From NCBI RefSeq assembly GCF_054482595.1, contig NZ_CM137008.1: a stretch of DNA of 64,000 bases. One strand, written 5' to 3'. Under the pieces are notes generated by a model. The model made no database searches. It worked only from the letters and a program-made list of their open reading frames with translations, and was not told the origin of the DNA. Below are positions 1,660 to 3,566 of this stretch, in pieces. Within the stretch, counting starts at the first letter, position 1. Every line of letters starts with the position of its first letter. A program made the translations under genes and the position numbers.

Positions 1660-1923
1660 TCAGGCGCGGATTTGTTGTGATGTGGTTGTGCTCTGGCAGA
1701 TGGCAACGTGTGCGACGTCCACCAGTTTATTTAACTGACTAAACAGTAAGTCGACCGACCGTGGGCTGGCAACGGTCAATTCGATATTTATATTTTGTGC
1801 ATCGCTGGCGGCGGCCATATTCATTGAGCAGACGTGGAAACCACGATGACGCACCACGCGTAAAACACGTTCTAAGGTTTCCGGATTGAAGCGAGCCGAT
1901 ACATTGACCTGATGTTGCATCAT
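1660..1923 (-). CDS. ilvM: Acetolactate synthase II small subunit
   Basis: 87-aa [34 protein letters not shown]...; 4-bp overlap with the ilvG stop, as in the ilvGM pair. Confidence 0.93.
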
Positions 1924-3566
1924 GATAATTTCTCCAACATTTCTGAATTACTGGCACCTGGCGGCACCAGCGGCCAGACGTTCTCAAGTTCGTCGATTGA
2001 GACATGAAGCAGGTATGGCCCATCACTGTTCAGCATGGTGTCGAGTGCCGCTTCAACCTGGTCTTTACGGGTGATGTGTTGGCCAGGGATGCCGAAGGCG
2101 CTGGCTAACATGAGGAAATCGGGGTTATCGGTAAGGGTGGTTTCGCTGTATCGTTCCTGGAAAAACAGTTGCTGCCATTGTCGAACCATCCCTAACCGTT
2201 GGTTATCGAGTAAGACGATTTTCAACGGTAACTGCTTGCGTTTTACGGTGCCCAGCTCTTGCACATTCATCATGAAAGAGCCGTCACCGGAGATACAGAC
2301 GACGGTATCGTTCGGTCGCGCGACTTGCGCGCCAACCGCCGCCGGTAAACCAAAACCCATGGTACCTAAGCCGCTGGAGGTGATGAAATTTTCCGGGCGA
2401 GTGTGGGCGATGTGCTGCGCAGCCCACATCTGGTGCTGCCCCACATCTGTGGTCACGACGCAATCCGCAGGTTTACGATCCGACAGTTGTTTTAACAACA
2501 ACGGCGCGTAGATAGCGTCACCGGGATGGTCGTAACGCCAGGCATGTTCATCACGCAGCTGCGCGCAGTGTTGCTGCCAGTCATTGATATTTAACGGCTG
2601 CTGTAATGCTGGTAACAGAGCATTTAAATCACCTTGTAATGCCACATGTGCCTGACGCAGCTTGTTCATTTCTGCCGGGTCGATATCCATATGGATAACA
2701 CTGGCGTGTGGTGCGAAGGTGTTCAGTTTGCCGGTCACCCGGTCATCAAAACGTGCACCCACGGCGATCAGCAAGTCGCACTCCTGCACCGCGAAGTTCG
2801 CCGCTTTGGTGCCATGCATTCCCAGCATGCCCAGATAGTACGGATAATCTGCTTCAACTGCGCCCAGCCCTTTCAGCGTGCAGGTGGCAGGCATTTTTGT
2901 GGTAGCGAGAAATTCTCGTAAAGCAGGAACTGCCTGCGCCATACCCACGCCACCACCAACGTACAGCATCGGTTTTTGCGCTTTTGCCAGCATCTGGCGC
3001 GCTTGCTCAACTTCGGCATGGGGGAAAGTCACTTCGTTTTCAACGGTGGTGAACCACGGTTCCAGATCGCCGCTGGCTAACTGGATATCTTTTGGGATAT
3101 CGACCAGAACCGGACCAGGACGACCTGAGCTGGCAACGTCGAATGCTTCAGCCATGATGCGCGGCAACTCTTCCAGCGACTGCACCAGAAAGCTGTGCTT
3201 GGTACAGGCTAACGACAATCCCAGGACATCCACTTCCTGAAATGCGTCGGTGCCGATAAACGGTGCGGACACTTGACCGGTGATGGCAACAACGGGGATG
3301 GAATCTAACAGTGCGTCCGCAAGCCCGGTTATCAGGTTGGTTGCGCCCGGACCAGACGTGGCGATACATACGCCAGTTTTGCCAGTAGCACGGGCATAAC
3401 CGATAGCCGCCATTGCCGCACCCTGTTCATGTCGGCACAGCAAGTGCTCCACGCCGCCGTCATACAATGCATCGTAAACCGGCATAATTGCGCCACCCGG
3501 ATAACCGAAAACGGTATTCACACCCTGTGCCCGCAACGCATGTACCACCCACTGTGCGCCATTCAT
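1920..3566 (-). CDS. ilvG: Acetolactate synthase II large subunit, intact 548-aa reading frame
   Basis: Uninterrupted 548-aa [41 protein letters not shown]... with TPP-enzyme motifs; in K-12 MG1655 this gene is frameshifted. Confidence 0.95.

Follow-up and report, generated by a model that had tools for sequence, protein, structure and literature searches.

The locus examined here raises a simple question: does the ilvG gene, which is interrupted by a frameshift in Escherichia coli K-12, encode a complete enzyme subunit in the strain from which this DNA was obtained, and what would an intact gene mean for growth in the presence of valine? We refer to the whole stretch of 64,000 nucleotides that was analysed as the window. 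An earlier note on this stretch had proposed that ilvG is uninterrupted and that acetohydroxy acid synthase II (AHAS II) should consequently be functional, unlike in K-12. IlvG is a thiamine-diphosphate/FAD enzyme that constitutes AHAS II together with IlvM. AHAS II catalyzes the condensation of pyruvate with either a second pyruvate or 2-ketobutyrate. Valine exerts no feedback inhibition on it, in contrast to AHAS I and III.

The ilvG frame and its operon

The genes of interest are found at the beginning of the window, all on the minus strand. Several assignments rely on the annotation of the urine isolate XH990 (NZ_CP019359.1), which is the best match to the region. Listed in the direction of transcription, the features are:

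3706..3804, minus strand: ilvL, leader ORF of the ilvGMEDA operon for a 32-residue peptide with many Ile, Val and Leu residues (translation MTALLRVISLVVISVVVIIIPPCGAALGRGKA)
3646..3715, minus strand: attenuator RNA seen in the RNA fold, with a hairpin over the ilvL stop followed by a GC-rich terminator hairpin and a run of eight U
3569..3619, minus strand: ilvX, a small ORF translated into a 16-residue peptide, directly upstream of ilvG (peptide IlvX, WP_001387183.1, in XH990 and K-12)
1920..3566, minus strand: ilvG, AHAS II catalytic subunit, an intact ORF of 548 residues with an ATG start and a TGA stop
1660..1923, minus strand: ilvM, AHAS II small (regulatory) subunit of 87 residues (translation, NF008362, Pfam ACT_5)
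711..1640, minus strand: ilvE, which follows ilvM in the operon and encodes the branched-chain amino-acid transaminase (XH990 annotation)
1-646, minus strand: ilvD, located after ilvE and truncated by the window start (XH990 annotation)

The earlier description of ilvG is accurate and lacked only the strand. The frame is indeed uninterrupted over 548 codons: it is a single ORF whose sole stop is the terminal one, with zero internal stops and zero N or ambiguous bases. Its product matches the NCBIfam equivalog NF006524 ("acetolactate synthase 2 catalytic subunit") with 1076.5 bits, the cutoff being 738. This match is obtained in one stretch, residues 1-547 of IlvG being placed on positions 1-547 of the 548 of the profile. 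Three Pfam domains are each covered over their full profile, namely PF02776 (TPP_enzyme_N) at residues 1-115, PF00205 (TPP_enzyme_M) at 186-321 and PF02775 (TPP_enzyme_C) at 374-522. Thiamine-diphosphate (ThDP) enzymes of this kind are built from an N-terminal Pyr domain, a central FAD-binding domain and a C-terminal PP domain. The protein also contains E47 and the GDG(427-429)...N455 motif for binding of the ThDP/Mg cofactor. Score and coverage, the three-domain architecture with its motifs, the operon setting and the open frame all place this protein among the AHAS II catalytic subunits. The identification of the gene as ilvG is further confirmed by the annotation of the identical DNA in XH990.

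Nine residues, E47, F109, M250, R276, V375, D428, N455, M460 and W464, are catalytically important in E. coli AHAS II according to mutagenesis work. All of them, like the GDG..N motif, are found in IlvG and they are invariant across the eight strains that we aligned (the window and the seven strains named below). A literature search for a source on the roles of these AHAS II residues gave nothing useful, the best match dealing with Glu477/Glu473 of pyruvate decarboxylases and not with Glu47. A structure search likewise gave no solved entry having the sequence of E. coli AHAS II. The closest solved structure is that of E. coli AHAS I (6LPI), which is aligned over IlvG residues 2-544 (E = 4e-162). 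Its catalytic subunit IlvB belongs to the same ThDP/FAD fold family and keeps the catalytic Glu as well as the GDG..N motif. However, IlvB is a paralogue of IlvG and not its orthologue, and AHAS I is valine-sensitive via its IlvN subunit. In the 6LPI alignment, AHAS I presents a Gln at the position of AHAS II Trp464. This Trp is linked to the preference of AHAS II for 2-ketobutyrate.

The genetic context is the canonical one, with ilvL, the attenuator, ilvX, ilvG, ilvM, ilvE and ilvD in this order. IlvM matches NF008362 ("acetolactate synthase 2 small subunit") with 133.9 bits for a cutoff of 68 and carries an ACT domain (Pfam ACT_5). The ATG start of ilvM sits in the ATGA that also carries the ilvG stop, which corresponds to the normal 4-nt overlap of the two genes, as had been noticed before. 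IlvM (WP_000983255.1) is common to K-12 and all sampled strains, IlvE (WP_000208520.1) and the IlvL peptide (WP_001311244.1) have the same accessions as in K-12, and the IlvX, IlvM and IlvE proteins are identical to their K-12 counterparts. The coding DNA of ilvL is identical to that of K-12 as well. Taken together, the gene at 1920-3566 (minus strand) is almost certainly a normal wild-type ilvG from an E. coli strain other than K-12.

The K-12 lesion and the state of ilvG in other strains

The window gene was compared by pairwise alignment with that of a K-12 record, where ilvG carries the annotation of a frameshifted pseudogene. The K-12 pseudogene (ilvG_1/ilvG_2) is the orthologous locus, with 98.2% DNA identity, and differs from the window by 35 substitutions and a single 2-bp gap. 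The site of the lesion is:

2589..2590, minus strand: nucleotides 977-978 of ilvG, the AT of an ATAT run, missing from K-12 in the pairwise alignment

The sequence at this site reads GTTAAATATCAATGAC in the window versus GTTAAATCAATGAC in K-12; placement of the gap inside ATAT is ambiguous by 1-2 nt. With ATAT reduced to AT, the K-12 frame continues into ...PLNQ and then meets a TGA, so that it ends after codon 327, whereas the window reads through. About 657 nt are thereby left untranslated ahead of ilvM in K-12. The alignment with K-12 that had been suggested for locating the frameshift thus establishes both its site and the contrast between a terminated K-12 gene and an open one in the window. 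In the genome paper of E. coli W, the K-12 lesion is given as "two separate base pair insertions". We did not adopt this wording, as the alignment indicates a 2-bp deficit in K-12.

An open frame does not necessarily mean an active enzyme. A missense or a regulatory change could leave IlvG inactive or poorly expressed, in which case the strain would still be valine-sensitive. If the K-12 frame is repaired in silico, its product still differs from IlvG of the window at four residues (S146/C, T222/A, A342/S and P494/H), which could be taken as a sign of such a defective allele. To place these differences we aligned IlvG of the window with that of seven strains spread across the identity range, EDL933, O104:H4 2009EL-2071, 3059, DEF10, 4/1-1, FAM21845 and CY706. 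The protein is intact at 548 residues in all seven, 99-100% identical to that of the window, and the alignment is gap-free. No private substitution of the window was found against these seven strains, each variable column being shared with other strains, and a deleterious private missense could therefore be discarded within the eight-strain alignment. At the four positions in question the residue of the window is shared with natural strains and is mostly the majority one; it is K-12 that is the outlier at several of them. The residues listed above as catalytic or cofactor-binding are intact. Moreover, 447 complete genomes share the 2301-bp region from 1600 to 3900 at an identity of 99% or more. 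The regulatory part of this alternative is considered with the leader below.

A second alternative is that the open frame results from an assembly or sequencing artefact hiding a real indel. Nothing specific speaks for it beyond the generic concern that applies to any single assembly. Against it, XH990 is an independent complete genome and is 100% identical to the window over 1600-3900, its ilvG product being WP_021557359.1, and the exact 70-nt wild-type junction is present in 1404 complete genomes. The gap-free alignment with the seven strains leaves no room for compensating indels. The earlier note had considered that a hidden frameshift or stop might emerge on careful retranslation. None did, and the single-stretch match to NF006524 together with the gap-free alignment of eight strains rules out a hidden frameshift or compensating indels. 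We consider an artefact extremely improbable, and a genuinely open ilvG is the reading retained here.

How common is each state of the gene? For the region 1600-3900 of the window, a match with 96-100% identity was obtained in all but one of 5426 complete E. coli genomes (5425), the matched genes being annotated as ilvL, ilvX, ilvG, ilvM and ilvE. Since BLAST identity bands mix the 2-bp gap with two SNPs (both fall at 95-99%), frequency is given here as the count of exact K-12 junctions, complemented by a sample of 30 records taken evenly down the ranking. With a query of 68 nt for the K-12 junction and of 70 nt for the wild-type one, the exact K-12 junction was found in 340 of the 5426 complete genomes, and among the matches listed all 60 K-12-junction genomes are K-12 laboratory derivatives (e.g. 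MG1655, DH5alpha, C600, J53, DH1 and HMS174). An exact wild-type junction was obtained for 1404 genomes, and most of the others have it with one or two differences. In the sample, 27 records cover all 2301 bases, two more (K-12 and S17-1) cover 2299, and one has a large deletion. An intact ilvG is thus the ancestral and majority state in E. coli, and K-12 is the unusual one. The same gene, with the same length of 548 residues and the same position in the operon, is found in the non-K-12 strains B, W, Crooks, CFT073, O157:H7 EDL933 and XH990. These strains have the ilvL attenuator, ilvX and the ilvM overlap as in the window, the only differences being allelic polymorphisms shared with natural strains.

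The intact gene had been presented as a clear strain marker. This is an overstatement: beyond non-K-12 status it carries no information on the strain, because intact ilvG is the majority state and the K-12 junction occurs in only 340 of 5426 genomes, so that an open frame merely excludes K-12.

A different situation was observed in the complete genome of strain NCCP12480 (NZ_CP068680.1), for which only the first 56% of the 1600-3900 query is matched. There, the annotation gives a "thiamine pyrophosphate-binding protein" and, directly after it, ilvA. The strain seems to have undergone a natural deletion from the middle of ilvG to ilvA, a separate route to the loss of AHAS II.

The leader and attenuator upstream of ilvG

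The RNA fold of 3636-3720 (minus strand) has an energy of -32.3 kcal/mol with a z-score of -4.85, and none of 200 shuffled sequences folds equally well. A simple terminator scan of the minus strand missed the attenuator on account of one internal mismatch in its stem; the hairpin is nevertheless clear in the RNA fold. The leader and attenuator are also matched by Rfam family RF02744 over 3586-3875 (minus strand), with 157.5 bits for a gathering score of 88. This family is named "Soft rot Enterobacteriaceae Rev 39 5'UTR", a name that is silent on the ilvGMEDA leader. RF02744 seems to correspond to this leader.

Compared with K-12, the leader and attenuator DNA shows three single-base differences and is otherwise identical. 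The first one is located in the promoter-proximal stretch, which is polymorphic among strains. The second is a C>T upstream of ilvL, at about 3841, and the third a G>A two nucleotides past the ilvL stop, at about 3708, in the loop of the AAGGCTT...AAGCCTT hairpin. Both of these are also present in XH990 and absent from K-12, EDL933 and 4/1-1. That they are not seen in these three other aligned strains could speak for a poorly expressed operon. However, both lie outside the base-paired attenuator stems and leave pairing unaffected, and the terminator is identical to that of K-12. It is very unlikely that the two SNPs have a small effect on attenuation or on the stability of the leader, and thereby on the expression of AHAS II in this lineage. 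Considering this together with the conserved protein, we give equally little credit to the possibility that IlvG is inactive or poorly expressed and the strain still valine-sensitive. An active, normally expressed ilvG remains our preferred reading.

Strain background and predicted growth on valine

An open ilvG might also be found in a K-12 derivative whose frame was restored by an ilvO-type reversion or by engineering. Such revertants are readily selected in MG1655 (PMC8605374). Those described there have lost 1 bp at the premature TGA or carry a change close to it, in a K-12 background. The junction of the window is the exact natural ATAT, and it is accompanied by the further 35 nucleotide differences from K-12 in ilvG. 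In addition, the first 50,000 bases of the window differ from the clinical isolate XH990 at just 3 positions (99.994% identity). The remainder of the window points in the same direction. The earlier note had mentioned other non-K-12 features, and two large ones are indeed present, an lpf2 operon and an EspY4-type island, both absent from K-12:

42287-49250: lpfA2 long-polar-fimbria operon (major subunit, chaperone, usher and two fimbrial proteins), between glmS and pstS, 43.7% GC
54004-61464: effector island of 7.5 kb, between phoU and yieH, 31.5% GC, replacing bglGFBH-yieL-yieK-cbrC-cbrB of K-12

The interval between glmS and pstS is only about 206 bp in K-12. This is the region downstream of glmS in which the attachment site of Tn7 is located. 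With a 7-kb fimbrial operon and a 7.5-kb island foreign to K-12, with bglGFBH-yieLK-cbrCB missing, and with 35 differences in ilvG, the reading of the window as a K-12 revertant is refuted; the chance that it holds is negligible. The window is best read as DNA of a natural strain.

The effector island contains three ORFs with weak pentapeptide-repeat matches, and the homologous genes of other genomes carry the annotations "T3SS effector EspY4", "type III effector protein" or "pentapeptide repeat-containing protein". Matches to the island were obtained in 1109 of 5426 genomes, most of them at 90-95% identity. The allele carried by the window is uncommon in this comparison, because only 14 of the 1109 matching genomes reach at least 99%. 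One of the ORFs, at 54420-56972 (plus strand, 29% GC), encodes 850 residues with a weak Pentapeptide_3 match. Window and XH990 both have it intact, and its identity to the 808-residue ORF at 58896-61322 is 31% (E = 1e-116). At the position of the 850-residue ORF, the RefSeq record of XH990 has only an 84-nt "incomplete hypothetical protein" pseudogene at the 5' end, the rest being unannotated. This looks like a missed gene call in XH990. Beside the island, the yieH-adeP-yieF segment (61465-64000) has only 92.1% identity to K-12, with 24 gap openings, against 97.8-98.7% for the remaining aligned blocks, a sign that this flank may have recombined or diverged. Elsewhere in the window, a full-length Rfam match (187.7 bits) to the enterobacterial sRNA STnc410 was recorded at 38682-38839 (minus strand), in the atpC-glmU intergenic region and antisense to the flanking genes.

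What can be expected from an intact ilvG in such a strain? Valine sensitivity of K-12 results from its frameshifted ilvG (PMC6483228; bioRxiv 10.1101/2025.10.31.685768), and MG1655 with a restored ilvG frame grows on valine up to 1 mg/ml (PMC8605374). The gene is intact in B, W and Crooks, and in B strains this has been tied to growth on valine dipeptides (PMC3446290; PMC3032704). Intact ilvG mediates valine resistance (PMC3446290). According to the part of PMC8605374 that cites Lawther et al. 1981 and Parekh & Hatfield 1997, the disruption in K-12 is polar on the downstream genes of ilvGMEDA, and restoration of ilvG could relieve this polarity, as suggested in PMC8605374.

From this literature on other strains we infer, for the strain of the window, that the enzyme is active and insensitive to valine, that polarity is relieved and that growth is valine-resistant. 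ilvG represents the second translated gene cluster of the ilvL-ilvX-ilvG-ilvM-ilvE-ilvD-ilvA operon. As ilvG is translated to its end, ilvM could be coupled translationally: ribosomes would reach the end of ilvG and pass to ilvM via the ATGA overlap. The stretch of about 657 untranslated nucleotides behind the polarity on ilvEDA in K-12 is absent here, and no polarity of the K-12 type would be expected. IlvG and IlvM would then form a valine-insensitive AHAS II. Since AHAS II is not inhibited by valine, a cell with intact ilvG should make isoleucine in its presence, and this continued synthesis would allow valine-resistant growth. A functional AHAS II and valine-resistant growth are thus well-supported predictions for this strain, as the earlier note had proposed; they presuppose normal alleles at the other loci with an influence on valine sensitivity (ilvBN, ilvIH, transport), on which the window gives no information.

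An intact ilvG in E. coli is already known as the textbook wild type. The DNA of the window belongs to a natural, non-K-12 E. coli whose ilvGMEDA operon has its standard full complement, and no new biology follows from this. A mild practical connection exists with growth in human urine, which contains valine: a recent preprint reports that no AHAS isozyme other than AHAS II is active there and that uropathogenic E. coli needs it for growth in this medium (bioRxiv 10.1101/2025.10.31.685768). The near-identical XH990 is an isolate from urine. Predictions based on K-12, namely valine sensitivity and a polar reduction of ilvEDA expression, should not be transferred to the strain of the window.
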